DNA of 64,000 nt from Candidatus Latescibacterota bacterium. GTDB lineage: Bacteria > Latescibacterota > CBDEFO01. The stretch covers positions 128,001 through 192,000 of the forward strand of contig CBDEFO010000004.1 in assembly GCA_965237525.1 (NCBI GenBank), written 5' to 3'. Numbering within the stretch: position 1 is the stretch's first letter; each line of letters opens with the position of its first letter. The notes below the pieces were generated by a model, which searched no databases, was not told the origin of the DNA, and saw only the letters and a list, made by a program, of their open reading frames with translations. Shown here piece after piece: positions 2,982 through 62,990 of this stretch. The translations under genes were made by a program, and so were the position numbers.

Positions 2982-3330
2982 CGTCGATTATCCAGATGGC
3001 GGGGGAAGGTTAGGATAGATCGGATAGCGCCCCGAAGTTGAATGACGAGTCTCTTTACAAACAACCAATCCCTGATAGAATCAATCGGGGATTGGCTTCA
3101 TAATTTCGAGTACTTTGAACAGGCTGAAAGGATTATATCCCAAAAGTATTATGTCCTAAAAGGATTATGTCCCAACGGATCGATCACTATAACAAGAAGC
3201 ACCGCCACTCATCCTTGGGATATAAGACCTCAGAAGCGTGGAGAAAACAATTTTATCTGCTACCCCAGGTTGCTTAATCGGTGTCGCTTTCCGGGGGAGC
3301 ACTACAATGTCAGTTTGGAGGATCGGAAGC

Positions 3331-4932
3331 ATGCTAACTGACGTGCCTCAAAACCATGTGATCGAGATTTCCTTTGCCTCGACTTCCAGGTATGACGATC
3401 CGTACAACGATGTCGAACTCGACGTGCTCGTCACGACGTCTGACGGCGGGCAGCTTCGCATACCGGCTTTCTGGGCAGGCGACAACGTCTGGAAGGCCCG
3501 GTTCGCCGGAAACCGCCTAGGTGACTACACCTTCGAGACGGAGGCGAAAGCCGCCACTGATAACGGTCTCCATGGACAGACAGGAACCTTCAGAGTTCAT
3601 CGGTACGAAGGCGACAACGCTTTGTTGCGCCACGGCAGATTGCGCGTAGCGGATGATCGGCGGCACTTCGAGCACGACGACGGAACGCCGTTCTTCTGGA
3701 CGGGTGATACCTGGTGGATGGGGCTGACGACTCGCCTCGACTGGCCCCAGGGTTTCAAAGAGCTCGCAGCAGATCGCCTGGCAAAAGGCTTTAACGTTAT
3801 CCAGATTATCGCCGGGCCGTATCCCGATATGGAGGCCTGGGATCCGAGAGGGCGAAACGAAGCGGGTTTTCCATTTGCGGATGATTTCGAAAGCGTAAAC
3901 CCATCCTATTACGACCACGCGGATTTGAAGATTGCACATCTTGTGGGCACGGGGCTGGTGCCATGTATCGTCGGCATGTGGGGCTATTATCTGCCCAGAA
4001 TCGGTGTGGAAAGGGTCAAGCGCTTTTGGCGCTACCTGGTCGCCCGTTATGGAGCCTACCCTGCAGTGTGGTGCATGTGCGGCGAAGGCATCATGCCTTA
4101 CTACCTTTCCGAAACGCCCGAAGCGGATGCCGCGCTGCAGAAGAGCGGTTGGACTGAGGTCATGGCCTATGTGCGCGATATCGATCCCTACCGAAATCTC
4201 ATCACCATTCACCCAAACCAGTCAGGGCGCGCACAGGTAGAAGACCCCAGCCTCATGGATTTCGAAATGCTTCAGAGCGGGCACAATGATTACGTGAGCG
4301 TCTCGCGGACGATCGACAACGTCACCGAATCGGTCGATGCCGAACCGGTTATGCCGGTCATAGATGCTGAAGTGAACTACGAGGGCATCTTAGGCCGGTG
4401 CTGGCAGAACATCCAGCGCCTCTGCTTCTATCATTCCGTCCTCCGCGGGGCTGCGGGCCATACATATGGCGCCAACGGCATCTGGCAGATGAACACGTGC
4501 GAAACACCGTATGGCCCGTCACCCCATGGTCGCTGCTGGGGAAACACGCCATGGCGCGAAGCGGCGCAACTGCCCGGTTCCCGCCAGGTCGGACTCGGTG
4601 GACAATTCATGCAAAGGTTTCCGTGGTGGGAGCTACAGTATCGGCGTGACTGGGTGTCGGATGAGGCACCGGAAGACGACCCGTATGGCGCCGTGGCCGT
4701 GGGCATTCCGGGGAAACTGAGAATTGTGTACATGCCTATGTGTTGGGATCCGTGCCCCATCATCGGCATCGAGGCCGACATAACCTATGAAGCTTATTAC
4801 TTCGACCCGTGCACCGGGGAGCATGTCGACATCGGCAGGGTGGAAGCTTCGGACGAGGGTGCATGGACGGCGCCGATACCACCGGAGTGCCACGACTGGC
4901 TGCTTGTGATGGAACGCACTGTAAGTGTCTGA
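3331..4932 (+). CDS. Apiosidase-like / DUF5060-DUF4038 glycoside hydrolase-like protein
   Basis: PFFWTGDTWW, RYLVARYGAY, EVNYEG and GHTYGANGIWQ motifs; GGAGG RBS before ATG 3331. Confidence 0.75.
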   Translation: MLTDVPQNHVIEISFASTSRYDDPYNDVELDVLVTTSDGGQLRIPAFWAGDNVWKARFAGNRLGDYTFETEAKAATDNGLHGQTGTFRVHRYEGDNALLRHGRLRVADDRRHFEHDDGTPFFWTGDTWWMGLTTRLDWPQGFKELAADRLAKGFNVIQIIAGPYPDMEAWDPRGRNEAGFPFADDFESVNPSYYDHADLKIAHLVGTGLVPCIVGMWGYYLPRIGVERVKRFWRYLVARYGAYPAVWCMCGEGIMPYYLSETPEADAALQKSGWTEVMAYVRDIDPYRNLITIHPNQSGRAQVEDPSLMDFEMLQSGHNDYVSVSRTIDNVTESVDAEPVMPVIDAEVNYEGILGRCWQNIQRLCFYHSVLRGAAGHTYGANGIWQMNTCETPYGPSPHGRCWGNTPWREAAQLPGSRQVGLGGQFMQRFPWWELQYRRDWVSDEAPEDDPYGAVAVGIPGKLRIVYMPMCWDPCPIIGIEADITYEAYYFDPCTGEHVDIGRVEASDEGAWTAPIPPECHDWLLVMERTVSV

Positions 4933-5883
4933 TGGACCAGCAAGCGGTGTGAAAAACGAATCCGCCATGGGGGAACTGCTCGCTCCGTTCGGGAACACTT
5001 AATACTTCCCGAACTGAAGGGAACGCTATGAAAACGACGGCAACACCGGAAGAGATCCAGGATTATCCATGCGAGGGTATCGTGGACGGCATTGTCGTCG
5101 ACTGGGACGGCGGCGGCGCAGCAAGGGCAGCTGCTACTGCAACGTCTGGTTCTCCAGGTTCATGAAGATCAAGGGCTTTAAGGTGGAGCTGCCGGAGAAG
5201 GCTAAGTGTTCCCAACTTCTCGAGGACTGGGGGCAGGTCAAGTCATACGAGGATAACTTCTACAAGCGTGGGGTCGAGGTGTTCACGCGTAATGCAAGAT
5301 ACTTACAGGTGGTCAGTACCGATTTACAGGAACTAAAATTCAAGAGCTAAGACTATAGAGATAATATAGATTATTGCAACTAAATTTTAGGATTGAAATC
5401 TTACCATAGAACGGATATTTTCGACCGTCTAACTGAGTTCTTATGAGTGAATGGAGAGGTGTCTCTAATTGGAGAATTTAAACACAAAGAAAGTGATAAA
5501 TCAGAGGAAAATCTTATTTTGATTAAAAAAAGTACTTGTTGAAAAATGTAAAATCGGAGATCACACGGGTCCGCGCCGAAGGAAGAGTTGGCCTCTTTCC
5601 CGTCTCCGGCGCGTGACGCTGAATGATGAATCACTTACGCCGATGCGAGAACCGCAACATGGCTAGTGTCAAGAATATCCAAATTGCAACTATACGGATA
5701 TACCTGTAATTGTAATTAACCTCACTTTGCTAGCCTGCCTGTAAGAGCCGGTAGTGGGGGGTGATATCTTGAACGTAGGCTACCGATTCTGCCAGAGCTC
5801 CAAACATGCAGACACTGCGGCTACCGCACTAACTTAACAGAAGCAATTTAAACAGGTTATGCCTGCTTAGGTAAGGCACAGAA

Positions 5884-6640
5884 ATGACGAGATCACTGTC
5901 GATTGTGGAGGAACTGCGTTGCATGTGGTCCGGTGCCTCCATCTGCGGGGAAGGACCACTCTGGGACATTCAGCAGCTAGCCCTCTACTGAGTGGACATT
6001 GACGGGTGTAAGGCCCACCGCTACCGTTTGGCGGACGGAGTGGTCAGCACTTGGGAGTTGCCGGAAAAGACAGGCTGGCTGCTGCCGCGCCAAGGCTGCA
6101 GCGATTTCGTCGCAGGCTGCAAGTCCGGAATATATTTTATTGACCTCGACACTGGATCACGGGAATTCGCCATCGATCCGGAACCGGACCTACCGGGCAA
6201 CCACATCAACGATGGCAAGTGTGACGTGGACGGTCGTATCTGGGCTGGTACTATGGATGACGACGAGGTGAATTCACGGGCTGGCTGTACCGCATTGACC
6301 CGGACCTCAGTCACAGCCGGTGGGATGGTCCCTACAGGGTAACCAACGGCCCGGCAATCTCCCCGGACGTCCTGACCGTCGACACCGAGGGCTACATCTG
6401 GCTTGCGCACTGGGGCGGCAGCCGGATCACGCGGTTTGCACCGGACGGCAGCGTGGACGGCATCCTCGAAAGCCGGTGCCGAAAATGACGAGCTGCGCCT
6501 TCGGCGGACCGGAAATGGACCTGCTTTTGATCACCACTCCGGTGTGCAACGTGGACCTCACCCAATACCCGCAGGCCGGCGGTCTTTTCTGCGTGAAAAC
6601 GCAAGTGGAAGGCCTGCCCTCTCCAGTCTTCAAAGGGTGA
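5884..6640 (+). pseudogene. SMP-30/gluconolactonase family, decayed
   Basis: GEGPLWD, NDGKCD.DGRIWAGTM and TSCAFGGP motifs; in-frame TGA at 5989-5991, frameshifts and an apparent internal deletion near 6360. Confidence 0.85.
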
Positions 6641-6676
6641 AGGCCGCCTTTAGCGGTATAGAAAAAAGTTTCGATT

Positions 6677-7484
6677 GTGCTGAACACACGTGCTCTGTGC
6701 CGCTTTCGACAGAAGCTCTCAAAGGATGAGGCCGTGTACGGTCTATGGGTCGCTCGAGGCACCCAGCATCACTGAAATGGGCGTCGCACTTGGACTGCAT
6801 TGGATCGTCATCGATTCCGAACACGGACATCTTGACTGGGGAGACATCGTGGGCCACGTGCGGGCAGCGGTGCGAAGCAAGACGGTCATTTTAGTGCGCA
6901 TTGCAGCTGTCCGTGAGCCTCATCAGACGTGCCCTGGATATTGGTGCTGACTGTATAGCGGTTCCCTGGATCGAGACTGAAGATATGCTGCGCTAGGCAG
7001 TTGCGTACGCAAACTACCCGCCGCGTGGACGGCGCTGGATTGGCAGCGAACGGGCGACATGCTGGGGGCAGTCCGTCTCCGAACACGTTGCCGAAGCCGA
7101 CGAGCACGTAATGGTGGTGCCAATCGTTGAAAGCGTGGCCGCTCGTCGTAGCATCAACCAGATGCTTGAGTTGGACGGCGTCGACGTGTTCTTCTTTGGG
7201 CCCTCCGACTATTCATCTACAGCCGGGTATGCGGGGCAATGGGAGGGGCCACGCGTTGCACAGCACATCCTGCAGGCGAAGGAAGCCGGTGTGGCTATAG
7301 GAAAACACCGAGGTTTGCTGGCCACAAGCTACGAGAATCTTCACGAGCGTTACCAGCAGGGGTTCCGAATGCTCGGCCTCGGATATCGGACAGCGGCTTG
7401 CTGTTATGTAGCCTCCATAAGGCGCTGGACAGCGTAGGACGCGATTCAAAGTTGAGTCCCGGCCTTATGCCCGATGACGAATAA
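6677..7484 (+). pseudogene. HpcH/HpaI aldolase family, decayed
   Basis: WIVIDSEHG, PIVES and FFGPSDYS motifs spread over several frames, with an internal TAG. Confidence 0.8.
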
Positions 7485-7879
7485 CCCTTTGGGCCCTGCT
7501 CATAATGACTTGTTATTTGGGGAAGAGCATTGTGGCGAAAATTAGCCTGGACTATTCACAAAAACTGAATATTTTCTCATAAACAACTCTACTGTAACAA
7601 GTTATAGAAAAGTTTCGACGTTCTCGCAAAAGGCCCGATTGCTCAAGGCTAACGCTGAGCTAGAGCACGTACTAAGAAAAACTCCGGGAAATCGCAGCGT
7701 GAGCTTTACAACCACCACGGGGGCACTACAGCTTGCGATATACCGTAGCTAAATGAATCCATATGTACAGCGAAACACCTGTCGCGGGATCATGATCCTG
7801 GGAGATCGTCATATGGAACCCTCTCAAGCGGGCTTGTGTTCCCCCGCACCTGATACTCACTGATTCTATAGGAGCGAGT

Positions 7880-8932
7880 ATGCCACGAATCAAGTCTGAT
7901 GTGTTGAAGGATTTTACGGCCCGAATCTTCCGAGCTTATGGGCTGCGCCACGATGTCGCGGACATCGTGGCGGATTCACTCGTACTGGGTAACCTCAAAG
8001 GGCACGACTCGCACGGCGTAATCCGGGTCATGGAATATGTTGACTGGCTGGCCAAAGGCTGGCTTAACGCCGACGCCGAAATGAAGGTGGTCCGTGACGA
8101 CGGTGTGATCCTGATGATCGATGGCGATTTCGGATTTGGACAGGTGATCGGGCGGCAGGCGACGCGACTGGCAATTGACAAGGTGCGCCAGGAAGGGGTG
8201 TGCGTGATGACGATCCGCAGATCGGGACACCTCGGCCGGGTCGGTGAATTTATGGAAATGGCGGGTGACGCTGGGTTGCTGGCGTTTGGTTTCACGAACA
8301 CGCACGGCGGCGGCGTGCTGGCTGCGCCGTACGGCGGAAGAGAACGGCGGTTATCGGCCAACCCCATTCTTGGCGCGGCGCCGCGAGCCGATGGCGACCC
8401 GATCGTTATGGATATGGCGACGTGCTCCACGGCCGAGGGAAAGGTGAAGGTTGCCCGCGCGGCCGGCAAGCAGATACCCGAAGGCTATCTTGTCAACAGT
8501 GACGGGCATCCGTCGACAGATCCGGAGGATTATTACAGTGATCCACCGGGGGCGTTGCTGCCGATGGCGGGGCATAAAGGTTTTGCCCTGGCACTGATGT
8601 GCGACATTTTCGCCGGGGCTGTTAGCGGGGGTGAATGTAGCACGGAAGGTATTGCCCGCATAGCCAACACGCTTTTTGCAGTTTTTATTGACCCGGAGCG
8701 ATTCTGCGGCCGCGATTACTACTTCGAGCAGGTTGAACAGCTTGTTCGTTGGGTCAAGTCAAGCGAACTGATGGAGGGGTTCGACCGAATCATGGTTCCC
8801 GGTGAGCCAGAAGCGATTGCCGAGCAAGCCCGCAGTGCTGAAGGAATTCACATCGAGGATTCGACCTGGCAGAAGATCACGTCCGTCGCCGCCAGCAAGG
8901 GAATTGTTTACGATTTCGGTGCGGCTACGTAG
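7880..8932 (+). CDS. Ldh_2 family (malate/L-lactate/L-sulfolactate-type) oxidoreductase
   Basis: GHDSHG, SGHLGR, ANPI, DMAT and GHKG motifs. Confidence 0.9.
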   Translation: MPRIKSDVLKDFTARIFRAYGLRHDVADIVADSLVLGNLKGHDSHGVIRVMEYVDWLAKGWLNADAEMKVVRDDGVILMIDGDFGFGQVIGRQATRLAIDKVRQEGVCVMTIRRSGHLGRVGEFMEMAGDAGLLAFGFTNTHGGGVLAAPYGGRERRLSANPILGAAPRADGDPIVMDMATCSTAEGKVKVARAAGKQIPEGYLVNSDGHPSTDPEDYYSDPPGALLPMAGHKGFALALMCDIFAGAVSGGECSTEGIARIANTLFAVFIDPERFCGRDYYFEQVEQLVRWVKSSELMEGFDRIMVPGEPEAIAEQARSAEGIHIEDSTWQKITSVAASKGIVYDFGAAT

Positions 8933-8968
8933 CATAAGATCAATGATCCTTTAGAAAAGGAAGCAACG

Positions 8969-9148
8969 ATGAACACTCTGTCTCTTTTTGATTTAAGCGG
9001 CAAGAAGGTGCTGATTACGGGTGCAGGAGTCGGAATCGGAAGAGGCTATGCGTTGGCTCAGGCAGGTGCCGGGGCTGATATCGCCATGATTGACGTCAAT
9101 GAGACGTCAGGCCGACGCTGCTCCGGCAGTTTCCGGCATATTCAGTAA
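8969..9148 (+). pseudogene. 5' fragment of an SDR oxidoreductase
   Basis: MNTLSLFDLSGKKVLITGAGVGIG... (TGxxxGIG motif); truncated after 59 aa. Confidence 0.8.
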
Positions 9149-9176
9149 CCGGGATGGAATTCAGGATGGAAGCCTG

Positions 9177-10970
9177 ATGCCCAAGCAATCACAGCACCAA
9201 GACCTGTCACCACTGCCTCAATGGGATACAAGCTACCGCCTGCTCAAGCTGGGCGAGGATATCACGTTCCATTTTTCTTGTCCCGACACTGCCTACCCTG
9301 ATCATTTCGAGATCTTTCCGCGTTATCTAGAGGCGGCCGATCCGGGCGATGCGTTCGTGGCTGGTGGGGACCCTGACTGGCTCGACGAACTGGAAAAACA
9401 GCGGGTTGGACTGACTTTTAGCGGCGGGCGCGCCTCGGTCACTTACACACCGAAGGAGCCGGGTAGTTACATGGCCCGGTGGCGGGCCAGTGGCGAAACG
9501 TTTCATCGCTACTTTTCGGTCGTTGAGGACAACTGGATCGTGCTGCGATTCTCAGGCGGCTATGGCCCGGAGCCCGAGCCCAGCTTGCACGCCACCGGAA
9601 TCCCTCTGGATTATCGCTTACCGATTGAACAGTTCGACCCCAACGATCCGCTGTACCAGAAGTTACTCGGCTATCATCGGCACTACGGCGATTTGATTGT
9701 GCCAGTCCTGCCCGACACCCCAGATCTAAGTGAGGCCGAACGCGTGACCCTGTACGGCGACGGTCTGGCCAGGGTGCGCGAGCTGCTGCCGGATCCCGAT
9801 AGCGCCCGCTCCGTGCGCATCGAGATGATGCACGAATTTGATCCGGGCTATACCAATGCGCTTGAACAACTTGGCATCAACAATCACAGCGGACTGTGGC
9901 AGGCGAACGCCAGGCCGTGGCTGGGGATGCCTGAGTTTCCCTATTTCTGCTCGCCGATCGACTGCCGCAAGCCTAATCAGGGCCAGGGCGGCGCCGTCGT
10001 TGCCAACGCATGGGACTTCTGCGGCGGCTGGCATTTCATTGGACCCAACGCCTGGCATTACCGCGCCTCGAGAGGCCGCATCGAGGAGGCCGCCAAATGC
10101 CTGCGCCAGGGCATGCAGGAAGCCCAGATCCTGGCCGAGCTCAGCGGACATCCAGCCTTTCTCTATCCACTGTACGACGGTTTTGTCCCTCACGCGAAAC
10201 TTCGAATCCCGCCGGTCCAGAGCGAAGAAAAAACCAGCTTCGAATTCGGCCAGAGCTATCAACGGATGATGGCATTTGAGTTCCCTAAAGAGTTCAAGGT
10301 CGTCTACGCCCGCTCAATCGACGTGGCCGATTACTACAGCCGTCATTTTGAGATCACGCCGCGGACGATCTTTGTCAGCAAGACCGATCACGTGATGTAC
10401 GACACCTGGTGGCAGACCTCCTGGCACGATCAGCGGATGTTCGAGACGCGCGAGCGCATGCCCTGGAGCACGCGTATCTCCAGCATCATGCGCCAGCGAA
10501 AGTCGTATCCCAAAATCGAAGGCAAGCGCCTGGACGAGCAGCCGCCATTCAAGGACCCGCTTTCCTACGAATTCATTCTGATCGAAGATCAGAAACGATC
10601 AATCCGGTTTGAGCGAGAATGCCCCAATCCCATCTGGTGGTTCGATTACACCGGTCAGCAGCGCAGCCAAGAAGGTAGCGCCATTACGTGGACCGAAACG
10701 CCGGACGTCGAGATCCACCTGTCGCCGTGGTCGGGCAACGCAAATGAAAAGACCATCACACTGGAAATGGAAACCGACGCTCAGTTCGCGAATTACGCCA
10801 TCGCCCTGTGGGACCTGCCCGACGCGTTCGACCCGGACGGTCCGATCAAGACCAGCGCCGCCGAACAAATCTTGACCAGGAATACCGACGGCGAACACCA
10901 TCTGGTCCTGTTCTTCGACCTCAAACCGGGCGTGGTCCTGAACGTCACGATCCCGGTACGCAGCTCGTAG
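9177..10970 (+). CDS. Hypothetical protein (~597 aa)
   Basis: Long GC3-biased ORF; no family recognised. Confidence 0.75.
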   Translation: MPKQSQHQDLSPLPQWDTSYRLLKLGEDITFHFSCPDTAYPDHFEIFPRYLEAADPGDAFVAGGDPDWLDELEKQRVGLTFSGGRASVTYTPKEPGSYMARWRASGETFHRYFSVVEDNWIVLRFSGGYGPEPEPSLHATGIPLDYRLPIEQFDPNDPLYQKLLGYHRHYGDLIVPVLPDTPDLSEAERVTLYGDGLARVRELLPDPDSARSVRIEMMHEFDPGYTNALEQLGINNHSGLWQANARPWLGMPEFPYFCSPIDCRKPNQGQGGAVVANAWDFCGGWHFIGPNAWHYRASRGRIEEAAKCLRQGMQEAQILAELSGHPAFLYPLYDGFVPHAKLRIPPVQSEEKTSFEFGQSYQRMMAFEFPKEFKVVYARSIDVADYYSRHFEITPRTIFVSKTDHVMYDTWWQTSWHDQRMFETRERMPWSTRISSIMRQRKSYPKIEGKRLDEQPPFKDPLSYEFILIEDQKRSIRFERECPNPIWWFDYTGQQRSQEGSAITWTETPDVEIHLSPWSGNANEKTITLEMETDAQFANYAIALWDLPDAFDPDGPIKTSAAEQILTRNTDGEHHLVLFFDLKPGVVLNVTIPVRSS

Positions 10971-21407: not shown

Positions 21408-21483
21408 CTTCAGTTTCCTTGTTTACTAGCCGATTGTGTGATCTGCCCCCGATTAACCCCAAATTGAACCTATTGGGGGCGGT

Positions 21484-22135: not shown

Positions 22136-22666
22136 CTACCAGTCCTTTTCCGACCGGCTCCTTTGGATGCTCCGATCTCGGACATTCTTGGACACTTTCT
22201 CCTGATTCTCTATAAATAATTCCAAGAGTCTTGCTGCCTCCTTTTGGGCCTTTGTCATGCTTGTGTCGTCTCCACTTTCCTGGGAAATTTGTGAAGTATC
22301 CCCGATTGAATCTATCGGGGATTGACTCTGCGCGGCAAAAGACGTATCACTTTGAGCTTCCTGCTGATTCTGTACACCTGATGTATCAGCGTGAGTCTGT
22401 TGCTGCTGCTGATCTTGCTTTTGCATCTGTTCCATTACGCTCAAAAGAGCCGACGACTTTTGATGTTCTGGAGATACTCTAAGCGCCGCCTTCAAGTACT
22501 CTTTTGCCTCCTCCCATGCGGGGTCTTTGATCTGGCTCTTAGAGAATCGTGCGGCTCCCAGGTAGAAAAGCCGTTCTGCTCCCATGTCCGAACCGGTCTG
22601 TCCGAACGCTCTTACATGAAATAGAATAAGCAAAACGAAGAAAGCTTTTATAAATTCTTTTTTCAT
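22136..22666 (-). CDS. Exported Gln-rich protein with a BatC-like 'KDW' C-terminus
   Basis: Signal peptide, single TPR, Q-rich linker, ends in EKDW; contains the 21-bp element in frame. Confidence 0.65.
   Translation of the reverse strand: MKKEFIKAFFVLLILFHVRAFGQTGSDMGAERLFYLGAARFSKSQIKDPAWEEAKEYLKAALRVSPEHQKSSALLSVMEQMQKQDQQQQQTHADTSGVQNQQEAQSDTSFAAQSQSPIDSIGDTSQISQESGDDTSMTKAQKEAARLLELFIENQEKVSKNVRDRSIQRSRSEKDW
22300..22320. repeat. 21-bp palindromic mini-element (representative perfect copy)
   Basis: CCCCGATTGAATCTATCGGGG; copies start at 3070, 21458, 22300, 22741, 23897, 24060, 31421, 34015, 35047, 44313, 49623 and 62840. Confidence 0.9.
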
Positions 22667-22966
22667 TGTCCCTTATATTCAAAACGCGGACTTTCGGAAT
22701 GCTTACATAAAAAATACGATATCGACAGGATAAAATCAACCCCCAAATGAATCTATTGGGTTTCAGCCCCTGATTTTATAGGGGATCAACCTATTTGATA
22801 GGCAAGATGTCTGTGCGTATCAGATCGTAGGCTTATCGTTGATTCTAAAGATAGAGCCAACTGGGAATTTCCTTGTAAATAGTTCTTTACTTTGCAAGGA
22901 ACTGCACTTATCTTTGATATAAATTCTTCACAAAGTTTTGGGGCCTTAAAAAGGGAGACAGCAAAT

Positions 22967-23837: not shown

Positions 23838-24380
23838 TCACAGACACTCCATCCCCCTTGTTCCCAGACCCTCTGGGAGCCGACAGACGTTTTTGTCCCC
23901 GATAGATTCAATCGGGGATTGAGCTATGTAGATATAATACCTCACAGAGGGATATCGCATCACCTGGATGTCCACAGTTCCATCTGACGGAGTCCAACAG
24001 CCTATAACCAGATCGGGGTTATATCTTTCCAGTGCCCCCTTTGCACTCATCCTCTGAATCCTTGATAGATTCAATCCGGGAATGGGAGGGGCTATGTCCT
24101 TCCAGTCTCCAGAGTCGACAGCTATGACATTGTGGCCCTCTTTGTGCATCCCTAAACTCAAAAGACCGACCCCTGCGCATACTTCTAGGACATTGTTGAC
24201 ATCCAATCGCCTTATCTGATCCGATAGAAGACGCACAAATTCCTGCGTGGGAAGGTGATATATCTCCCAATGCTCACAGTAATCGAGCCAGGAGTCTATG
24301 CCATCTACAGCCCCCGATTCACAGAGCCTGATATGCTCTAGGGCGTCTTTGTAGCTTGGAAGTTTGAGACGTGAATCCAC
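23838..24380 (-). CDS. SAM-dependent methyltransferase-like protein; true C-terminus probably continues in the 23606-23911 frame
   Basis: VLEVCAGVGLL...IAVD motif I; contains two copies of the 21-bp element. Confidence 0.6.
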   Translation of the reverse strand: MDSRLKLPSYKDALEHIRLCESGAVDGIDSWLDYCEHWEIYHLPTQEFVRLLSDQIRRLDVNNVLEVCAGVGLLSLGMHKEGHNVIAVDSGDWKDIAPPIPGLNLSRIQRMSAKGALERYNPDLVIGCWTPSDGTVDIQVMRYPSVRYYIYIAQSPIESIGDKNVCRLPEGLGTRGMECL

Positions 24381-31168: not shown

Positions 31169-31323
31169 ATTCCACTGGGTTAGTAGAGACTGAGGGTTGT
31201 AAATAGGACACCCTTCTGTCTCTACCCGCTCTCCTCTTTAGGCCTAATAATTAACAAAAAAAGGCCGTGTATTAATTAAGGCATTGTACTATATTATAGT
31301 TATGCCGTTTAACCACCTTCGGT

Positions 31324-31464
31324 GTCATTGCGAGCCGGAGGCGAAGCAATCTCCATTCTGTGGTAGATGTAATACTCTCCGGCTCTCATAGGAGATCACT
31401 ATAAAACCTTGAGATTGCTTACCCGATAGACTCAATCGGGGACCGCTTTGCTGGTCGCAATGAC
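31324..31464. repeat. GTCATTGCGAG..GAAGCAATCTC / GAGATTGCTT..TCGCAATGAC palindromic repeat with a nested 21-bp element
   Basis: Inverted halves at 31324-31353 and 31411-31464; related copies at 50135-50186, 62825-62889 and ~28372. Confidence 0.7.
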
Positions 31465-31718
31465 TCCACCAAGTTTATGAATTAATCGGGTTAGTACAGT
31501 GACAGTTTTGAAATCTTCGGTATCTTTTCACGAGCCAATATCATTAAGTTCAAGTGTCTAAATTAACTATAAGAGTCATTAATGTCAAATATTTTTTCTC
31601 TTGATCTTGTGGCGCTAAGATAATATATTTAGTGGACAACAGGGAAAATGTACATAATCGAGGCTATTGCAGGTTGATCAGGGAACAACAGCACAAGAAC
31701 TACACAAAAGGGTAATCT

Positions 31719-33984: not shown

Positions 33985-34122
33985 GTGATCAACGCCGGCA
34001 GTTCTCCGGTTGATCCACGATAGATTCAATAGGGGATCGAGGATGGTTCCCATGATTTCCGTCCCCGCCACATTTAATTGGGGATCCTGCACCTCGGCTG
34101 TTAGAACATTACTGGAGGTTAT

Positions 34123-35022: not shown

Positions 35023-35131
35023 TGGGAAGTATTGAACTTCGGTAGCCCCCGATAGATTCAATCGGGGGTAGACAGTGGACATTGCTGAGGAATCGACAGA
35101 CCATTGCAAAGAACGTGAAAGGACAATTCTT

Positions 35132-43605: not shown

Positions 43606-44793
43606 ATGTCAAAAGAGGTCAATGTAGGCCTGGTCGGCTATGCGTTTATGGGCAAGGCACACAGCCATGCCTACAAGGACGTATCCATGTTTTTTGACAT
43701 TGATGCTGTGCCGGTGATGAAAGCTATGTGCGGAAGGACCCGAAGGGCGGTGGCGGAGGCAGCCGAGAAGTTCGGTTGGGAAAGCTACGAGACTTCGTGG
43801 GAAAACCTAATAAAAAGAGACGACATAGACCTTGTGGACATATCGACTCCGGGGGATACTCACAGGGACATAGCTGTAGGGGCGGCTGAGGCTGGAAAGC
43901 ACGTCTTTTGTGAAAAACCGCTTGCAAACAACCTATCTGAGGCAAGAGAGATGCTATCTTCGGTGGAGGAGGCGGGTGTGAAAAACATGGTGGCGTTCAA
44001 CTACAGGCGGATACCTGCCGTGGCACTGGCTAAAAAGCTCATCGATGAAGGGAGAATAGGAAAGATATATCACTGGCGAGCTACATACCTCCAGGACTGG
44101 GTTATGGATCCCGATTTCCCCTTAGTGTGGAGGCTCCAAAAGGAAAAGACCGGATCTGGTCCGCACGCAGATTTGAACGCTCACATTATAGATATATCGC
44201 ACTATCTGGTGGGCGATATATCCGAGGTTGTCGGGATGTCGGAGACGTTTATAAAGGAAAGGCCGCTCCCGGAGGCGACGGACGATGCCCTGAGGGCGTC
44301 CGCTGGGCCTGTCCCCGAAGGATTCAATCGGGGAAGCACAAGGGGAGAGGTCACGGTGGACGATGCCACCTTGTTCTTGGCCAGGTTCGAAAACGGAGCT
44401 TTGGGCTCTTTCGAGGCGACGAGATTTGCGGGAGGGAGGAGAAATTACAACAGGTTCGAGATTAACGGGAGCGCGGGATCTATCGCCTTCAATCTTGAGA
44501 AGATGAACGAGCTTGTGTACTACAACCGCGAAGACGAGGGACATATCCAAGGCTTCAGAGAGATCATGGTCAACGAGAGTGTACATCCCTATATTTCAGC
44601 CTGGTGGCCTCCGGGACATATCATCGGCTGGGAGCACACCTTTGTTCACGAGGTAAAGGACCTGATGGACGCCATAGCCAATGACACTCAAGCCCATCCC
44701 GATTTTGCGGACGGAGTCAAGTGTCAGGCTGTGCTTGAAGCTGTGACTAAATCGGTGGAGGAGAGCAGTTGGATTAAGGTCTCGGAGCTTTAA
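43606..44793 (+). CDS. Gfo/Idh/MocA oxidoreductase
   Basis: GYAFMGKAH, CEKPLA and FNYRR motifs; carries the in-frame 21-bp element. Confidence 0.92.
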   Translation: MSKEVNVGLVGYAFMGKAHSHAYKDVSMFFDIDAVPVMKAMCGRTRRAVAEAAEKFGWESYETSWENLIKRDDIDLVDISTPGDTHRDIAVGAAEAGKHVFCEKPLANNLSEAREMLSSVEEAGVKNMVAFNYRRIPAVALAKKLIDEGRIGKIYHWRATYLQDWVMDPDFPLVWRLQKEKTGSGPHADLNAHIIDISHYLVGDISEVVGMSETFIKERPLPEATDDALRASAGPVPEGFNRGSTRGEVTVDDATLFLARFENGALGSFEATRFAGGRRNYNRFEINGSAGSIAFNLEKMNELVYYNREDEGHIQGFREIMVNESVHPYISAWWPPGHIIGWEHTFVHEVKDLMDAIANDTQAHPDFADGVKCQAVLEAVTKSVEESSWIKVSEL

Positions 44794-49304: not shown

Positions 49305-49679
49305 TTACTCATTCCGAATCTCAATACCCTCTTTTTCGGCTTGGGAGACGATGTTGATCTGCTCGGTTTTCCGTGCGTACTCTTCGGGCGTATAGCATAA
49401 AACTTCCAGATTTTCAGGAAGATTCCAGTATCTGCTGACCTCAGCCGACCTTTGAGTAAACTGTATGTTTTGGAATGAGCGTGAGACGAGTATAAGATCG
49501 TAGTCGCTATCTATAAGTTCATCGCCCCTTGCGCGCGATCCGAAGATAATTGCCCTCTGAAGGGGGGACTCCGCGCTAAGTCGCTTCACAAAGCTCTTTA
49601 GGGCTTTCCAATCTATTCCGATCCCCGATTGAATCCTTCGGGGACAGCGCCTGCCTTTTTCAACAGTGTATGAACCCAT
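49305..49679 (-). CDS. Minimal nucleotidyltransferase (MNT antitoxin)
   Basis: FGSRARGD..SDYDL motif; its stop codon lies inside the IS TIR. Confidence 0.88.
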   Translation of the reverse strand: MGSYTVEKGRRCPRRIQSGIGIDWKALKSFVKRLSAESPLQRAIIFGSRARGDELIDSDYDLILVSRSFQNIQFTQRSAEVSRYWNLPENLEVLCYTPEEYARKTEQINIVSQAEKEGIEIRNE

Positions 49680-50035
49680 GCTTTTACCTTCTCGGAAGCT
49701 TCTACCAATGTTCCTATCTTAGCTGTATCGTAATTTTGTTCGGGCACTCCGTTTGCCGCATCTGGATATCGGGAGACAGAATACTCAGGGTTCAACAGCC
49801 TTAAAGAGGAGAGGATATTCTCCGGAGCTTCAAGGGTTTTCCCCAATTCTATCAGATTATGCGTTTTAGGCGGCATCTCTCGTTTGATCTCGATAATAGC
49901 TCCTTTGAGAGCCTTCTCTGCAACCTGATGCGAATAGAACGCCGCTGCGGACAGATGCCCGCTCTCCTTCAGATCCCGGACAGTATCCAGATCTATCTCT
50001 GATTGTTCAAGCCAATTTCGCGCTTCAAGTCTCAA
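49613..50035 (-). CDS. HEPN domain protein
   Basis: F.SHQ.AEKALK, KTHNL and SRYPD motifs. Confidence 0.88.
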   Translation of the reverse strand: MRLEARNWLEQSEIDLDTVRDLKESGHLSAAAFYSHQVAEKALKGAIIEIKREMPPKTHNLIELGKTLEAPENILSSLRLLNPEYSVSRYPDAANGVPEQNYDTAKIGTLVEASEKVKAWVHTLLKKAGAVPEGFNRGSE

Positions 50036-53280: not shown

Positions 53281-53282
53281 AA

Positions 53283-54374: not shown

Positions 54375-54400
54375 TCACTAAAACGATTACTTGAAAGGCT

Positions 54401-55404: not shown

Positions 55405-55408
55405 CGAT

Positions 55409-56272: not shown

Positions 56273-56414
56273 TAGGTCTAGATAAGCTTTGGGTTATGTA
56301 TTCCATAGCTGAGAGCGAACATTTTCCTTAGCCTGCGTTTTCACTTGCAGCAGATGCTCTCCTAGCAGTTTCTGAAAGGAAATATACACAAACCTCTTGG
56401 GGAGGAATGTTAGT

Positions 56415-59400
56415 ATGGATGCCAAATTTTCTAAAGGCGATAAAGTTATAATTAGAGCACTGGGCAACAGGAAGGGTATAATTGATGCTGAACACGACGT
56501 AAAAAAAGGCAGATTATTGTACCCTGTTTCTATTGATCCAAACCAAGAAAGTAGTCCCTATTACCCAGAAGATTCACTGGAAAAATTTGTTCCACTAAAA
56601 TCAGTAGAACAACTATTAAAAGGAAAAGAATTTTCTGATATTGAGGATTTTATTCAGACACTGATTTATAGAAAACTGGAGAGACCTCTAGCCGACAATC
56701 TATATACGTTTTATGCCTCACGAACACAATTTCTGGTTCACCAATTTAAGCCCGTCCTTAAATTTCTCAATACGCCCAAACAAAGGCTTTTGTTGGCGGA
56801 TGAAGTTGGATTAGGCAAAACCATTGAGACAGGTATTATTCTCACAGAAATGTCTGCACGATTAGGGCAATTGTCCAGAGTTTTGATTGTATGTCCTTCC
56901 ATGTTAACCCAGAAATGGGAACAGGAGATGCACAAACGATTTAGCTTAGATTTTAGTATTTTGGACAGAGATGACTTTAGAAAATTCTTGGAGAAATATA
57001 CCAGATATGGAGAGGGAGAGAAACTAAAGGGCATAATTCCTCTCCAAATTGTTAGGTCAAAGGAAATGATCAAAAGCTTAAGAGAGATAGAACCACACTT
57101 TGATATTGTTGTGGTTGACGAAGCACATCACATGAGAAATCCTGAAACCCTAAGCAGTAAACTTGGTGAGGTTTTATCAGAATTATCAGATGCAATGCTT
57201 TTCCTCTCTGCTACACCTTTGCAATTGGGAACACCTGACCTCTTTAATCTTCTTGGTCTTCTCATCCCAGAAGAGTTTTCAGATTTTCCTTTGTTTCATA
57301 ACCTCATTGAACCTAATGAATATATTAACAATGCCCTGCGGAGATTACATGATCCATCTGCTGCACTTGAATTACTTAAGAAAGTCGAAGAAACATCTCA
57401 AAAAGAAAGGTTCATCAAAAATTCTTTCTATCGTGAAGCAATGGATCTGCTTAGCAATAATAGCAAACTAACCCGTGAACAAGCGATTCGTCTGCAGAGA
57501 CTTTTGATAGAGTTGAATTGCTTATCCTATGTATTTACCAGAACGAAAAAGAGAGATGTTCAAGTTGAATTTCCTATTAGGGAAGCAAGAGTCATTCGGG
57601 TTGAATTTACGCCAGAAGAGATGAAGTTTTACGATGCAGTCACGGATTTTGTCTCGGAACGCTTTACAGCAAGAGATGGTCTTCACAAGGAATTTCTTTT
57701 GCAGTCATAATGCCTCAAAGACAGGTGGCAAGCTGTATTCAAGCTATGAAAGAAAGTCTTGATGATATAGTCAAGAAAAGAGTTATCAGAGCCCCATCTG
57801 TAGATAATGGAGATATGATCGACTCTTCCCTTGATATTGATTCATCTTGGGAATTAGAAGACGGAGAAGTCTTTTCTATTTCGAAGCTTAAAGAAACTGC
57901 CAATAGAATAGGCAATATTGACACAAAATTTGATAGGTTTTTGGAAGTATTACGTAACCTCGAAGAAGAAGACCCCAGTGCAAAGATAATCGTGTTTGCG
58001 TTTTTTAAAAAGACTCTGGAATATCTAAGAAGAAGATTAGAAGGTACAGAGTATAGTCAAAAGGTAGGCCTAATTCATGGGGATATTGCTACAAAGCATA
58101 GACAGAAGATTATTAAGAAGTTTCGCCAAACAGATGAAATAAAAATTCTACTTTCTTCTGAAGTCAGTGGTGAGGGGTTAGACTTTGAATTCTGTACTGT
58201 AGTTTTTAACTATGATTTACCATGGAACCCAATGAAAGTGGAGCAGCGAATCGGTCGGCTAGATCGTTATGGTCAACGCCATGAAAAAATTCTTATTTAC
58301 AACTTCTCAATGGTGGGAACTGTAGATGATGAAATTTTGAACCGTCTGTACCGAAGAATAAATATTTTTGAGAGGTATATTGGAGACTTAGATGCCATCT
58401 TAGGAGACCACATAACAAAGTTAACAAGGGAGATATTTAATACAAAGCTAACTGCTGCGCAGAAGATCACAAGGATTGAAAAAGTAAGTGAAAATATAAA
58501 AAGAAGGCAGACAGAATTAGAAGAGTTTGAGAGAGAGTGCCAGAAGTTTATCGGTCAAGATGAATATTTCAATCAAGAAACCACAAGAATTAGGGAGACG
58601 AAGCGCTTCATTACTTCAATTGAAGTAAAGTTCTTTCTTGAATTCTTTCTTAAAAGCAATTTCCCAAAAACCACGTTGCTTTGTCCCAAGAGCGGAAGGT
58701 CCGACGTGTTAGTTCTCAAATGTGACGATGATTTTCGCAAATTTGTTAGACAATATTCCCCTAAAACTGATAACATAAGCGAATTAGAGAGAAAATTAGA
58801 ATTTGACGGTGGTATCTTGGTAACTTTCAAGGACGAAGAAGCCTGTAGAGACGAATCTTTGGAATTCATTACAATTCATCATCCAATAGTCAAAGCAATA
58901 AAACAGTACTATGTTGAGAATAATCAAAAGATCCATACCACAGCACAATTCCGCTTAACAGGAAAAACTGAATACCAAGGTAAATACATTTTTCTCATAT
59001 ATTTGTTAGAAAAGAGTGCGTTAAAGACCGATCTTATTTTGGTACCAATTCTTGTCAACTTGGAAAATAGTAAAGTCAACGTAGTAATGCATGAACTTTG
59101 CGATTGGTTCTTGGGTGAAATTGTGGAAGCAAAATCCCCAGGCGATGAAACTCTGGCAACGTACGAAGTCCAGAACTTTGAAACAGCATTTAAAGAGGCA
59201 GGATAATATATTGAGATGGCTCGCGATGATGAGCAGCAGAAGCTAAGGAGAAGTAACGACACATTAGTAAATAACCAAATTGAAAGTGTTAAACAGGCAA
59301 CTGAAATTAAAATAAAGAAAAGCGAAGACACTATCAGGAAACTTAAACAGGGAGGCAGTACCGAAGAAGATCCTATAGTTAGGCTTCACAGAGGAATAAT

Positions 59401-59515
59401 CCGGAACGTTCGAGATCATATGGACCAGAAAATAAGAGAATTAGAGCAAAAAAGAACTGTTTTGGTGACGTTTAATCTTATTGCGGGTGGAGTAGTGGAA
59501 ATTGAAGAATCATAA
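56415..59515 (+). pseudogene. SNF2-family helicase (RapA/HepA-like), frameshift near 57685 and TAA at 59204-59206
   Basis: LADEVGLGKT, DEAH, SATP, EGLD, YDLPWNP and EQRIGRLDR motifs; AT-rich. Confidence 0.85.
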
Positions 59516-59663
59516 TCCGGGCATAGTCGGAAAAATGGCTAAGCAAAAGGGTCGCCTAAAACATATTAGATGCTCAAAGTCAACAAGGAACTCTTGAGTG
59601 CCGGGCGTGGCAACTTCTGTAATTGGCAGCATTAGACCAAATAAGACGCTGAGACAACAGAAT

Positions 59664-59972
59664 GTGTCAGACAGTCCATATTCCAAGTTTGTCAAAGACG
59701 AGTGGATCCTTCGCGACTATCTGGCTGTCGATCGCACGGTCCTCGCCAATGAGAGGACTTTCCTTGCATACATACGAACCGCTCTGACCCTCTTTATAGC
59801 CGGGGTGTCTTTCATCCAGTTCTTCGATTCTGTCGCGATCGAAGTAGTCGGATGGATATTCGTCCCTGTGGGAATAGCGACTTTCATAGTGGGATTTACA
59901 AGATACAATAAGATGAAAGGCCTAGTTCAAGGAATAAAAGAGGATGACACTACTACGCCTAACACACATTAA
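59664..59972 (+). CDS. DUF202 membrane protein
   Basis: RT.LANERTFLAY.RT motif. Confidence 0.85.
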   Translation: MSDSPYSKFVKDEWILRDYLAVDRTVLANERTFLAYIRTALTLFIAGVSFIQFFDSVAIEVVGWIFVPVGIATFIVGFTRYNKMKGLVQGIKEDDTTTPNTH

Positions 59973-59985
59973 AAGTGATACAGTG

Positions 59986-61989
59986 ATGGGAAGTTACGCC
60001 AACAAAATATTAGTCTTATTCCTCCTCATCGCGGGCTGTGCGGCGCCTGGTCACCTGAAAACGAGCTCAAGGCCCGGGGAGGAGACGGAACTTAAAAGCG
60101 AGGCTTTGATTCACTTTGTCACGGCTAAAGCGTTCGAACTCAGAGAGAATTACTACGCCGCTATCGTGGAGTTTATGGAAGCAGCAAGGTTAGATTCGAC
60201 TTCAGCATCTATATATTACGCTATAGCCCGAAACTACATGGCGCTTCGTGAATTTGACCATAGAGCCTTAGAGTTCACTCAAAAAGCGATAAGAAGAGAC
60301 CCCTCCTTTGAAAAGGCGAACAATCTTCTGATCAACCTCTATCGCAAAAAGGGTGACAGTATCGGAATGGAGAGAGGAATCAAGAAGCTTATAGAACTCG
60401 AGCCGAGAGATTATAACAGGTATTTTGATCTCATCAATCTGTATTTCCGCGAGAACAGGTCAGAACAGGCTATAGAGATACTCGACAAGCTGGAGACCAT
60501 AGAGGTTCTCCCAACTAAGATACGTTTTGCGATAGCGAGGAATTACTCGGTCCTTGGAAAGATGCCGAAGGCCAAGAAGAACTACCGCAGGGTCATCGCT
60601 GACGATCCGAATTTCGTGGACGCCTGGCTGAGATTGGGTCTGATTCTGGAATCTGAAGGAGATAAAGAAGGGGCAATGGAGCTTTACGAGGAGGTCCTGA
60701 ACCAAGAGGCACTGAAGGGAAATCCGAGGGACATAGATATATTCGACAGGCTCTCCTCGATATACCTTTCCGATGACGATCTGATAGACAGAGCGATAGA
60801 GAAGACAGGAGAAAATAGGGACTTCCTATATTACTTGGGTTCGACCTTCTTGACGAAAGGGAAATTCAAAGAGGCAGAGGTCGTGTTTAAGGCCCTTGCA
60901 GATGAGGGAAAAGACGATAAGGCTTATAATCTTTTGGGAGCCTCGCTGTCGGCTCGAAAGAAGTACGATGAGGCAGTCTGGGCGTACAAAATGGCGTTAG
61001 AGGTTCAGCCGAATAATAGCGACTACCTGCGCTCTTTAGGGCTTGCGTTAAGCCGCTCCAAGCGTCACGATGAAGCGGTGGAACTATTTCGATCCCGTCT
61101 TGAGGAGGAACCGGACAAGAAGCTCTATCTCTTCGGACTGGGCCAGGCTTTGAGCCTGGCAGATTCCCACAATGAGGCGATTGAAACGCTCCGCTCCCTG
61201 GTGGAGATGGAGCCGGACAACGTTGAGTATGAGTATGGGCTTGGGGACGCTCTGTACAGATCGAGTTCTTACACCGAGGCAGTAGCTGTGTTTCGGGCGC
61301 TCCTTGAGCGAGATCCCAATAATACAGAATTTGCACTTTCACTGGCCTACACGCTAAGCCGCGCAAAACTTCACAAAGAGGCAATTAAACTTTTCAGAGA
61401 CCTCCATATGGGCGACCCTGAAAACGAAAGCTATCTTTTTGGATTAGCTCGGGCTTTGAACCGTTCCGGAGCTTACGATGACGCCATTCAGATTTATGCT
61501 TCTCTTGTGGAAAAAGATCCCCAGAACACAATCTATCTATTCGGGTTAGGAAATGCCCTGGAACGAACCGGGTCCTCCGATGAGGCGGTAAGCACATTTG
61601 AGACTCTGCTCAGGATAGATCCAGACCATGCGTTCGCCCTTAATTACTTAGGTTATATATTCATAGAAAAGGGTATAAAGCTGCACGAATCGGTCGGGAT
61701 GATCAAAAAGGCATTAGTCCAAGAACCCCAAAACGGACCATTTTGGGATAGCTTAGGATGGGCGTATTACCAACTAGGACAGTTAGACAAAGCCGAGGAA
61801 TACCTGGATAAGGCCGTTACGTTTGTGAATGAGAACGATAAGGAAAACGCCGTTATATTCGATCATTTGGGCGATATTTCGTTTGCCCTGGAAAAGTTTC
61901 AAAAGGCCCAGACTCACTGGATCAAGTCCCTTCAGATAGATCCTGAAAACGACAAGGTAAGGGAAAAGCTTGGGAGGCTGTCAAAATAG
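59986..61989 (+). CDS. TPR-repeat lipoprotein
   Basis: IAGC lipobox; many TPRs; ALNYLGY...DSLGWAYY...DHLGD. Confidence 0.88.
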   Translation: MGSYANKILVLFLLIAGCAAPGHLKTSSRPGEETELKSEALIHFVTAKAFELRENYYAAIVEFMEAARLDSTSASIYYAIARNYMALREFDHRALEFTQKAIRRDPSFEKANNLLINLYRKKGDSIGMERGIKKLIELEPRDYNRYFDLINLYFRENRSEQAIEILDKLETIEVLPTKIRFAIARNYSVLGKMPKAKKNYRRVIADDPNFVDAWLRLGLILESEGDKEGAMELYEEVLNQEALKGNPRDIDIFDRLSSIYLSDDDLIDRAIEKTGENRDFLYYLGSTFLTKGKFKEAEVVFKALADEGKDDKAYNLLGASLSARKKYDEAVWAYKMALEVQPNNSDYLRSLGLALSRSKRHDEAVELFRSRLEEEPDKKLYLFGLGQALSLADSHNEAIETLRSLVEMEPDNVEYEYGLGDALYRSSSYTEAVAVFRALLERDPNNTEFALSLAYTLSRAKLHKEAIKLFRDLHMGDPENESYLFGLARALNRSGAYDDAIQIYASLVEKDPQNTIYLFGLGNALERTGSSDEAVSTFETLLRIDPDHAFALNYLGYIFIEKGIKLHESVGMIKKALVQEPQNGPFWDSLGWAYYQLGQLDKAEEYLDKAVTFVNENDKENAVIFDHLGDISFALEKFQKAQTHWIKSLQIDPENDKVREKLGRLSK

Positions 61990-62746
61990 GAGTCTCTTGA
62001 GGCTTTTGGGCTTTGTACTCGTTCTACTATGTGGATGCGCCCAGAGCGGTCTAATGAGAGATTTAACTCTCCAGGATGTAATTGCCGCTCTCCGTAGGAA
62101 CGAGCAAGATTTAAGGGACTTGTATGGGGGAGCAAACGTATTCTTGGATGTGGACGGGGTAAAGAACAGGGTCTGGGCATATGTGGCGTTTAAGAGTCCG
62201 GACTTAATGAAGATACAGGTAAATGGGTCGTTAGGCGTAAACGTCATGACGGCGCTGGCTTTCGGGGATAGTTTGGGGGTCTATCTCCCAAAAATCAAAA
62301 GTGCCGTAAAGGGAAAGATAGATGGCGATATATTCTTGCGGCTTTCAGGCATGGACTTCGGACCGGACGATCTGAGGCTCGCCTTTTTAGGGATAGTAAA
62401 TCTAAAAGAAGAAGATATAGCAAATGTCATCGAGTTCGATTTGCAGGACAATAGATGGCTGATCGTTCTGGACGAGGGCTGTAGAATTCGCCGGGTCTGG
62501 ATAGATAAGAAAGGAAGAGTTCCACTGGAGGAGTCCGTCTATGATCTGAGCGGAAATTTAGTCTTCAGACGGATAATGAAAAATTACAAGAAGACAGGAG
62601 GCGTCCTGCTTCCCAATCAAATCGAGATATTTCACCGCCAGAACACCGCTAGAATCGAGTTTATCCATCGAAAGGTAAACAGAGGCGTGGACGATAAGAG
62701 CTTTCAGATGAAAATTCCACAGGGTGTAAAGGTGGAGAGATTCTGA
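61970..62746 (+). CDS. LolA/LolB-like lipoprotein (DUF4292-like)
   Basis: LCGC lipobox; beta-rich; F.MKIP C-terminus; follows the TPR gene. Confidence 0.6.
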   Translation: MGGCQNRSLLRLLGFVLVLLCGCAQSGLMRDLTLQDVIAALRRNEQDLRDLYGGANVFLDVDGVKNRVWAYVAFKSPDLMKIQVNGSLGVNVMTALAFGDSLGVYLPKIKSAVKGKIDGDIFLRLSGMDFGPDDLRLAFLGIVNLKEEDIANVIEFDLQDNRWLIVLDEGCRIRRVWIDKKGRVPLEESVYDLSGNLVFRRIMKNYKKTGGVLLPNQIEIFHRQNTARIEFIHRKVNRGVDDKSFQMKIPQGVKVERF

Positions 62747-62990
62747 CGACGTTCCCATTGAGGGAAAATGAGCTCGCTTCAGGGATTGATCCCCCACAAT
62801 CACTACAGACCCCAGCCAAGCAACGTCAATGCGACCTCCCCCCGATTGAATCTATCGGGGGTTAAATCGGGCGGGAGCAAAGCAATCTCAATTCTGGGTT
62901 GTCTGATAGAAAATCCCTTCCTTACAGAGGAAGCATTAGCCCAGAGTGGAAGCTCCATATGAAATAAAGATAAAATCTTCGGAGGTGAAA

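Follow-up and report, generated by a model that had tools for sequence, protein, structure and literature searches.

A mobile 23-nt hairpin in Latescibacterota with copies in spacers and protein-coding genes

Tiny palindromes in coding genes are an already known phenomenon, and the movement of repeats of less than 30 nt, such as the small dispersed repeats (SDRs) and untagged hairpins like the repetitive extragenic palindromes (REPs), is an old question. In this study, we analyzed a 64-kb window of a Candidatus Latescibacterota bacterium (64,000 nucleotides; contig CBDEFO010000004.1, positions 128,001 to 192,000), in which a short palindrome, noticed in an earlier note as a 21-mer and delimited here as a hairpin of 23 nt, occurs twelve times. 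The genome under study (G000, 4.58 Mb), from which the window derives, was compared with a sister species of the same genus (G001, one contig, 98% complete, mean identity to G000 94%), with genomes of other carriers, and with metagenome and viral records.

SDRs are dispersed, apparently mobile units of about 20-27 nt, for which, in the accounts considered in part here, the enzyme is not known (PMC3116915, PMC5861425, PMC2884548, PMC4390886); their described range is the Nostocaceae (PMC5861425). The hairpin resembles them in its length (23-27 nt), its 631 copies, its filled and empty sites, its nesting in itself and in other repeats, and its compensatory stem changes. It differs in its hosts, which are Latescibacterota and deltaproteobacterial-type bacteria, and it is likened to SDRs by their description, not by the sequences of SDR1-8. 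Distinct from SDR5 with HIP1, as far as that pair is described in the sources at hand, the hairpin has no fixed target octamer, and the two junction classes measured for it (23-4 and 23+4) set it apart here from SDRs. Elhai and colleagues reportedly described in 2008 that SDRs nest in themselves, in heptamer repeats, and in mini-transposons, and that their hairpins show compensatory changes.

CGTC-tagged REPs have a CGTC or TGTC tag, an 8-9 bp stem, a 4-5 nt loop, and a CCA tail, and lie mostly as head-to-head dimers (PMC3733652); in the part of that report drawn on here, the family has intragenic units and no transposase (Di Nocera et al., 2013, PMC3733652). The hairpin shares the 8-bp stem, and its metagenome relatives have the tag and the CCA tail. 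Unlike these REPs, the G000 copies are without tag (present in 4 of 553 contexts) and tail (1 of 553), have a 7-nt loop, and move as the core alone. The Ssn single-strand nucleases are associated with NTS/SRM repeats that flank a GIY-YIG gene of about 95 aa (Chenal et al., 2025, PMC11893778). In the part of this source considered, the nuclease needs the tag, and DNA integration is not shown for it (PMC11893778). The same layout is seen at one locus (L292) with tagged relatives around a GIY-YIG gene, but the required tag is absent from the G000 copies. Rickettsia palindromic elements (RPEs) are palindromic DNA of 105-146 bp that lies in frame in conserved proteins and, according to the part of the source considered, is likely neutral (PMC2229807). 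In-frame insertion in conserved protein genes (PheS, Fmt, ProA, and an oxidoreductase) is shared with the hairpin, whose unit is in contrast 23-27 nt and whose insertions are mostly not a multiple of three. GTAG REPs and REPINs, which go with REP-associated tyrosine transposases (RAYTs), are short hairpins recognized as single strands, and REPs of RAYT subclass 2.4 are described, in the portions considered, as inserting into genes without breaking the frame (PMC6006769, PMC8266576). The hairpin has no GTAG or GTGG guide, its only oriented tag being CYTG (60 of 553), and shows neither the RAYT arrangement nor REPIN pairing. [quoted passage not shown] The hairpin works like the cyanobacterial SDRs and the Rickettsia elements but fails each named family on a tested feature.

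Unit, abundance, and mobility

Copies were counted with the central base free and at most four mismatches, which gave 631 in G000, and 553 independent contexts were left after copies in larger repeats had been merged. Perfect copies number 117, and 552 copies have at most three mismatches; the reversed-genome control gave 0. Genes make up 79% of the genome, and 58 of the 631 copies are internal to genes, with 517 (82%) intergenic. The nearest neighbor lies within 200 nt for 69 of 545 copies, and copies elsewhere in G000 sit inside multi-copy insertion sequence (IS)-like and MITE-like repeats. The prfA-fabF region is near-identical on two contigs (G000:C2:18154-21570 and C4:546138-549551), possibly through assembly overlap or strain mixture, so that a few copies may be counted twice. 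Several palindromic words occur 125-136 times each in G000 and are likely parts of one very high-copy IS.

The bases around the 21-mer are T-A in 243 and C-G in 172 of the 553 contexts. They are complementary in 418 contexts (250 expected), with no excess further outward, and the same terminal pairing is found in 49 of 51 deltaproteobacterial copies and in 113 of 122 metagenome and viral copies. Because the flank covaries as a base pair, the flanking T/A is part of the element, and the unit is 23 nt (the 21-mer plus a terminal base pair). At stem pair 5/17, all 40 of 40 double changes are Watson-Crick (8 expected). The predicted fold has an 8-bp stem and a 7-nt loop (z about -3), position 7 is T in 476 of 553 G000 copies, and four of the six frames of the consensus are open, as the earlier note had said. 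None of 263 exact cores has three or more mismatches in a terminal 4-mer, i.e., there are no half elements; the element thus inserts whole, because no exact core has a scrambled end. A sibling hairpin of 17 nt, which shares the arms but has fewer loop bases, has 17-18 copies in G000 and is itself a target of the 23-mer.

The hairpin is mobile. Orthologous sites of G000 were examined against 1.2 Mb of G001, roughly a quarter of that genome, and a site was retained if one flank or both occurred as a single copy. Of 158 G000 copies, 115 were filled at syntenic sites in G001 and 43 were empty; conversely, 26 of 142 G001 copies were empty in G000. Polymorphic copies are nearer the consensus than shared ones (p=0.04). 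Among sequencing runs from other studies, X2 carries the copy at 44308, and X5 (about 98% identical) is without it and without the copy at 49622. The copy at 44308, in an oxidoreductase gene, is a gain of 9 residues, because neither G001 nor any of five outgroup orthologues has it. In G000 and G001, PheS is longer by 6 residues than in 8 relatives, those among 12 other loci for which the anchors could be located. Since the outgroups are without the insert, the empty state is ancestral for both genes. An adapter or assembly artefact, the objection foreseen in the earlier note, is excluded by syntenic copies in an independent single-contig genome, copies in runs from other studies, decay, and covariation. 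Cross-genome DNA searches among deltaproteobacterial genomes found no clean orthologous pairs and yielded repeat-internal pairs only; no local donor copying was seen.

Loci from a Candidatus Latescibacterota record align with G000 mostly at 87-99%, in line with its placement. With one mismatch allowed, 374 copies were found in G000 and 360 in G001, and 0 or 1 in each of the other 59 genomes searched. A looser, arms-only pattern gave 328 and 291 in two genomes of the genus versus 0-4 in 149 other genomes of the phylum. Identical copies were present in Deltaproteobacteria and Thermodesulfobacteriota records (12 of 56 loci were non-Latescibacterota among the matches listed), and deltaproteobacterial-type carriers have tens of copies per genome. 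Within the phylum the hairpin is confined to this genus, yet it is not simply lineage-specific as first supposed, since identical copies are repeated in deltaproteobacterial-type genomes. In one genome of that type, copies lie inside long open reading frames (ORFs), at L213:3588-5897, L220:6463-7806, L217:6505-7104, and L221:1817-2647, including one for a UvrD-like helicase. A phage vector was considered and rejected; viral contigs contain the exact core 0 times and the looser pattern 7 times. The exact sequences were found in 0 of the papers searched, a search with supplements and subscription papers outside its scope.

The copies in the window

The twelve copies of the window were all recovered, with a chance expectation of 0.00 (100 shuffles). 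The match to the 21-mer is perfect at 22300, 23897, 35047, and 62840, 19/21 at 3070, 31421, 34015, 44313, and 49623, 18/21 at 24060, and 17/21 at 21458 and 22741. T precedes and A follows in 8 of the 12, and three others have C/G. Eleven copies could be compared with G001, where 4 sites are empty and 7 filled (two of the filled in diverged contexts). The copies and one host gene are as follows.

3069..3091, minus strand: 23-nt copy with T..A pair, intergenic; no orthologous site in the G001 sample.
21457..21479, plus strand: 23-nt copy with C..G pair and a compensatory A-T at 5/17, adjoining the remnant of an older copy; filled in G001.
22299..22321, plus strand: perfect copy in ORF 22136-22666 (minus strand), predicted to read SPIDSIGD in a Q/S-rich linker; filled in G001.
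22740..22762, plus strand: decayed copy (17/21), intergenic; filled in G001.
23896..23918, minus strand: perfect copy, four target bases replaced, net +19; empty allele in G001.
24059..24081, minus strand: older copy in ORF 23838-24380, predicted to read PGLNLSR; filled in G001.
31420..31442, minus strand: copy, net +20, in a GTCATTGCGA..AAGCAATCTC REP arm of a MITE-like repeat; empty in G001.
34014..34036, minus strand: copy (19/21), intergenic, with a 5-mismatch remnant at 34063; G001 copy in a diverged context.
35046..35068, minus strand: perfect copy with C..G pair beside CTGTCTAC-type heptamer repeats; G001 context diverged.
43606..44793, plus strand: host gene for a Gfo/Idh/MocA-type oxidoreductase, 395 aa versus 386 aa in the sister species.
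44308..44334, plus strand: 27-nt tagged copy (CCTG plus the 23-nt hairpin); absent from G001 and the five outgroup orthologues.
49622..49648, plus strand: 27-nt tagged copy within the final codons of HEPN-domain gene 49613-50035 (minus strand); empty in G001 and in run X5.
62839..62861, plus strand: perfect copy with C..G pair, intergenic; to its right lies what is left of a 17-nt sibling hairpin (62862-62872).

The copy at 22299..22321 is spanned gap-free by run X2, and its host ORF has no Pfam match. The copy at 23896..23918 puts the end portion of ORF 23838-24380 out of frame. The tagged copy at 44308..44334 entered with no target loss or duplication and adds nine residues (predicted GPVPEGFNR); that at 49622..49648 has the predicted reading VPEGFNRGS, in a host gene matched by Pfam HEPN. 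The G001 orthologue of the HEPN gene is split by about 1.1 kb (L017:8101-9586). Window 31246-31494 is a multi-copy MITE-like repeat of about 250-270 nt made of CGTC-type REP arms, two sites of which have each gained the hairpin. In G000, about 35 instances of the site of copy 31420..31442 are filled and 9-11 are empty; the filled sites therefore represent one insertion event spread by hitchhiking. As the earlier note observed, the IS, restriction-modification, and SNF2 genes of the window hold no copy, which is uninformative (0.12 expected at the coding density of the genome). The SNF2-type helicase (window 56397-59206) consists of two abutting ORFs of 437 and 498 aa, for which a frameshift is possible.

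Copies inside genes

Across the genome, 56 of 58 gene-internal copies use the four open frames. The hosts include PheS, ProA, SecA, FabF (two copies), a phosphohexomutase, MeaB, LpxD, an ABC exporter, and Fmt. In alignments to solved structures, the element coincides with gaps of 6-7 residues in PheS, Fmt, and ProA and with a longer gap in LpxD; for FabF, no match to solved structures was found at E 1e-100. The residues added are 6 in PheS, 6 or 7 in Fmt, 7 in ProA, and 9 in the oxidoreductase (overall range 5-9). The oxidoreductase structure was predicted with too little confidence (mean predicted local distance difference test score 52) for the insert to be located in it, and the word loop therefore refers to the alignments.

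The frame was tested on 40 filled/empty pairs with a net gain of 1-31 nt. Of the 10 events in genes, 9 preserved it, compared with 9 of the 30 spacer events (Fisher p=0.002). The sole frame-breaking event in a gene is the window copy at 23897 (+19), near the end of the ORF; the five coding copies of the window noted earlier do lie in ORFs, but this one is a frameshift and not an in-frame loop. The view that an exact seven-codon 21-mer is suited to in-frame insertion had to be given up, because the unit is 23 nt and the net gains seen most often, +19 and +20, disrupt the reading frame. The broader proposal of a very short mobile hairpin that adds peptides is upheld by the empty orthologous sites and by the extra residues read from the sequences of PheS, Fmt, ProA, and the oxidoreductase. 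The hairpin likely survives in genes only when an insertion happens to keep the frame (purifying selection), and the added peptides are likely tolerated passengers rather than functional modules. Mobility and the selection filter, taken alone, are in our judgment highly probable.

Junctions, relatives, and mechanism

Of 69 filled/empty pairs, 31 simple pairs were classified. Their net gains form two peaks, at +18 (5 pairs), +19 (7), and +20 (6), and at +25 to +27 (8), with five others. In the +18 to +20 class, the 23-mer stands in place of about 3-5 target bases, often with a central CG. The 23-mer lies between 4-nt direct repeats in 25 of the 553 contexts (4.5 expected), in 7 of 57 coding contexts (0.8 expected), and in 6 of 122 metagenome copies (0.3 expected), and there is no excess at 5 nt. 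At C8:963021, the allele of the sister species is empty and has the four duplicated bases once. On one side of 60 of 553 copies there is a CCTG or CTTG tag (5 expected), and most of these copies have A at position 7; tagged copies add 27 nt and leave the target unaltered or nearly so, both in G000 and in a deltaproteobacterial repeat. Because the CCTG bases are not a target copy, there must be at least two routes or registers. 5'-YYDR is preferred on both flanks, symmetrically, and the preference persists where the contexts are free of repeats and where they are coding. The hairpin often inserts into itself, into heptamer repeats, and into the arms or loops of other REPs. The replication-strand bias is weak at most (212 vs 174, p=0.06), in a genome of patchy GC skew. 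A heteroduplex with cuts 4 nt inside the hairpin was rejected, because the half elements it predicts were not found.

Among metagenome and viral copies, a (T/C)GTCA-tagged REP is the commonest context (62 of 122), and position 7 is mostly A or G. Apart from their longer loop, these relatives fit the CGTC superfamily (PMC3733652). The stem of the tagged relatives opens with A-T, and an ATCCA tail is present in 21 of 60 of them versus the single G000 copy; the GTCA-type tag accounts for the 4 tagged contexts of G000. The stem-loop was likely detached from a CGTC-type tagged REP, an origin that we infer because the metagenome relatives are tagged, the reverse direction being less likely. At L292, two tagged relatives flank a 93-aa GIY-YIG gene, and such hairpins lie on both sides of 9 of 28 homologous genes versus 0 of 22 control windows. 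A GIY-YIG gene between copies, as looked for in the earlier note, was thus seen with tagged relatives at this one locus and not with the untagged copies in G000. The Ssn-like GIY-YIG homologue of G000, 66% identical, is flanked by other CGTC-type hairpins and not by untagged 23-mer copies. This gene (92 aa, L159:1444-1722, G000:C4:479839-480114) lies between inverted dRS3-like CGTC hairpins. The strict SRM pattern matched 0 of 553 G000 copies and 0 of 71 tagged relatives (loop 2 nt too long), a pattern so insensitive that it also misses the flanks of the Ssn-like gene of G000.

Genes for a mobilizer were sought in up to six carrier genomes (G000, G001, and G061-G064); these are incomplete or only sampled, so that an enzyme not found may be present or may have been lost later. 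Ssn-like GIY-YIG genes occur in G000 and 24 others of 120 phylum genomes searched; among the six carriers the gene was found in G000 only, and not in G001 or G061-G064. Pfam Y1_Tnp gave 0 matches in G000 and G001, 10 in G061, and 13 in G062. The NCBIfam RAYT model gave one sub-threshold match in G000, and no RAYT was found in G001 by NCBIfam and homologue searches. The G000 gene (L189:1417-1971, G000:C8:1476094-1476648), missed by Pfam Y1_Tnp, is apparently intact and has subclass 2.4 motifs. It lies between GTAG-type REPs, the downstream one interrupted by a 23-mer copy, and is a neighbor rather than a proven partner. Reverse transcriptase was not found in G000, G061, or G064; G001 has two matches (L156, L158). 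Ku was not found in 5 of 5 carriers searched. The 29 G000 genes with copies on both sides are all ordinary genes, and no neighboring mobile gene was common to G000 and 20 deltaproteobacterial regions. In 129 metagenome and viral loci, no common mobile neighbor was found except the one GIY-YIG locus and, in 3, a group II intron-type reverse transcriptase. None of the tested candidates (RAYT, Ssn-like nuclease, reverse transcriptase, and Ku) turned up in every carrier.

We put the probability at roughly 0.6 that this is a selfish 23-nt hairpin transferred intact, in the form of a folded single DNA strand, to nicks with a stagger of about 4 nt. The starting unit would be the detached stem-loop of a CGTC-type REP, traveling entire, and the nicks would be made by a host or in-trans nuclease and not by a transposase of its own. 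The single-stranded intermediate is suggested by the structural covariation, and the staggered cut of about 4 nt by the symmetry of 23-4 and 23+4. Loss of the overhang would give a net +18 to +20, and its retention a 4-base duplication and net +27; in other +27 insertions, a 4-base CCTG-type tag would be carried along. Insertion would be blind to the frame, and selection would remove frame-breaking copies from genes. Several points weigh against this account. The junctions are ragged, with target loss of 0-11 nt and nearby substitutions, so that a clean staggered cut explains them incompletely; the four bases of the CCTG tag are not copied from the target; three +25/+26 pairs could be slippage losses between pre-existing short repeats; and the 38 complex pairs were left out of the classification. 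The direction of change is proven by outgroups for two genes only, and the coding counts depend on gene calls from our own hexamer-based caller. The cutting enzyme is putative, the proposal resting on sequence comparison; enzymes may have been lost after bursts, which makes their present absence weak evidence.

This account ranks ahead of movement by a RAYT in trans and of microhomology patching. The RAYT (HUH/Y1 transposase) of another REP family might move the hairpin by single-strand cutting and strand transfer, as the G000 gene, the copy inside its downstream GTAG-type REP, the Y1 matches of G061 and G062, and a homologue in G062 (52% identical) would suggest; copies are also often found in REP arms or loops, and the tagged +27 class is precise and without duplication, as in IS200/IS605-type insertion. 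We regard this as unlikely, because the near-complete G001 contig, in which no RAYT was found, has insertions of its own, only 1 of 24 deltaproteobacterial Y1 loci has a copy within about 1.5 kb, and the copies are without a GTAG guide. A 4-nt loss or duplication and so slight a strand bias would also be unexpected, and characterized RAYTs cut at C|T in the part of the source considered (PMC8266576). Short-patch double illegitimate recombination, or SPDIR, as documented in the portion of the report considered (10.1101/2024.07.02.601687), needs no special gene; in a similar route, single-stranded fragments of copies would anneal at microhomologies of replication forks and be patched in, the hairpin being the fragment that best resists exonucleases. 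The ragged junctions, the substituted flanking bases, and end matches of 1-2 nt such as the central CG fit such patching, as do the contexts in which both flanks are shared with another copy (35 vs 12 shuffled, at least 4 nt, repeat-free contexts); we nevertheless hold it to be improbable.

The two other explanations considered are both very improbable. Copies could be mere passengers of MITEs, IS elements, and tandem duplications, with empty alleles arising by deletion of the hairpin; 78 of the 631 copies do collapse into shared larger contexts, carrier amplification did fill the one REP site about 35 times, and some short direct repeats could drive slippage. Against this stand the 553 independent contexts, the inserts in single-copy essential genes that are absent from outgroups, and the 3-5 bases kept by empty alleles and missing from the filled ones, which deletion alone cannot create; the outgroup-polarized coding insertions largely refute it. 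Retention as a host signal (a terminator, protein-binding, or methylation site) would accord with the stable hairpin, its central GANTC word, and the predominance of intergenic copies, but orientation to transcription is unbiased (176 vs 160), copy density is similar in convergent, divergent, and co-directional spacers, and two species with 94% identity disagree at roughly a fifth to a quarter of the sites. GANTC is neither over- nor under-represented, and the only Rfam match in the window is a tRNA.

New here are the 23-nt boundary, the two-peak junction spectrum, the frame-selection test, and the tagged-REP relatives. For the old question of how such short repeats move, the family offers a defined substrate with exact ends, tolerated variants, and a target preference, together with closely related genome pairs that hold dozens of filled/empty events; the 23-4/23+4 signature is a constraint that any proposed enzyme must reproduce. 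Type II topoisomerases make 4-nt staggered cuts and have a link to the REPs of Escherichia coli. Such an enzyme would be the obvious candidate for a host enzyme with a 4-nt stagger. It is possible, though doubtful, that the hairpin is the smallest self-propagating DNA unit across phyla, integrated by a universal host enzyme of this kind or by an unrecognized integrase, and writing loops into essential proteins. Its copies illustrate how a blind process, probably filtered by selection, gives rise to protein loops even in central genes such as those for PheS, Fmt, and SecA.

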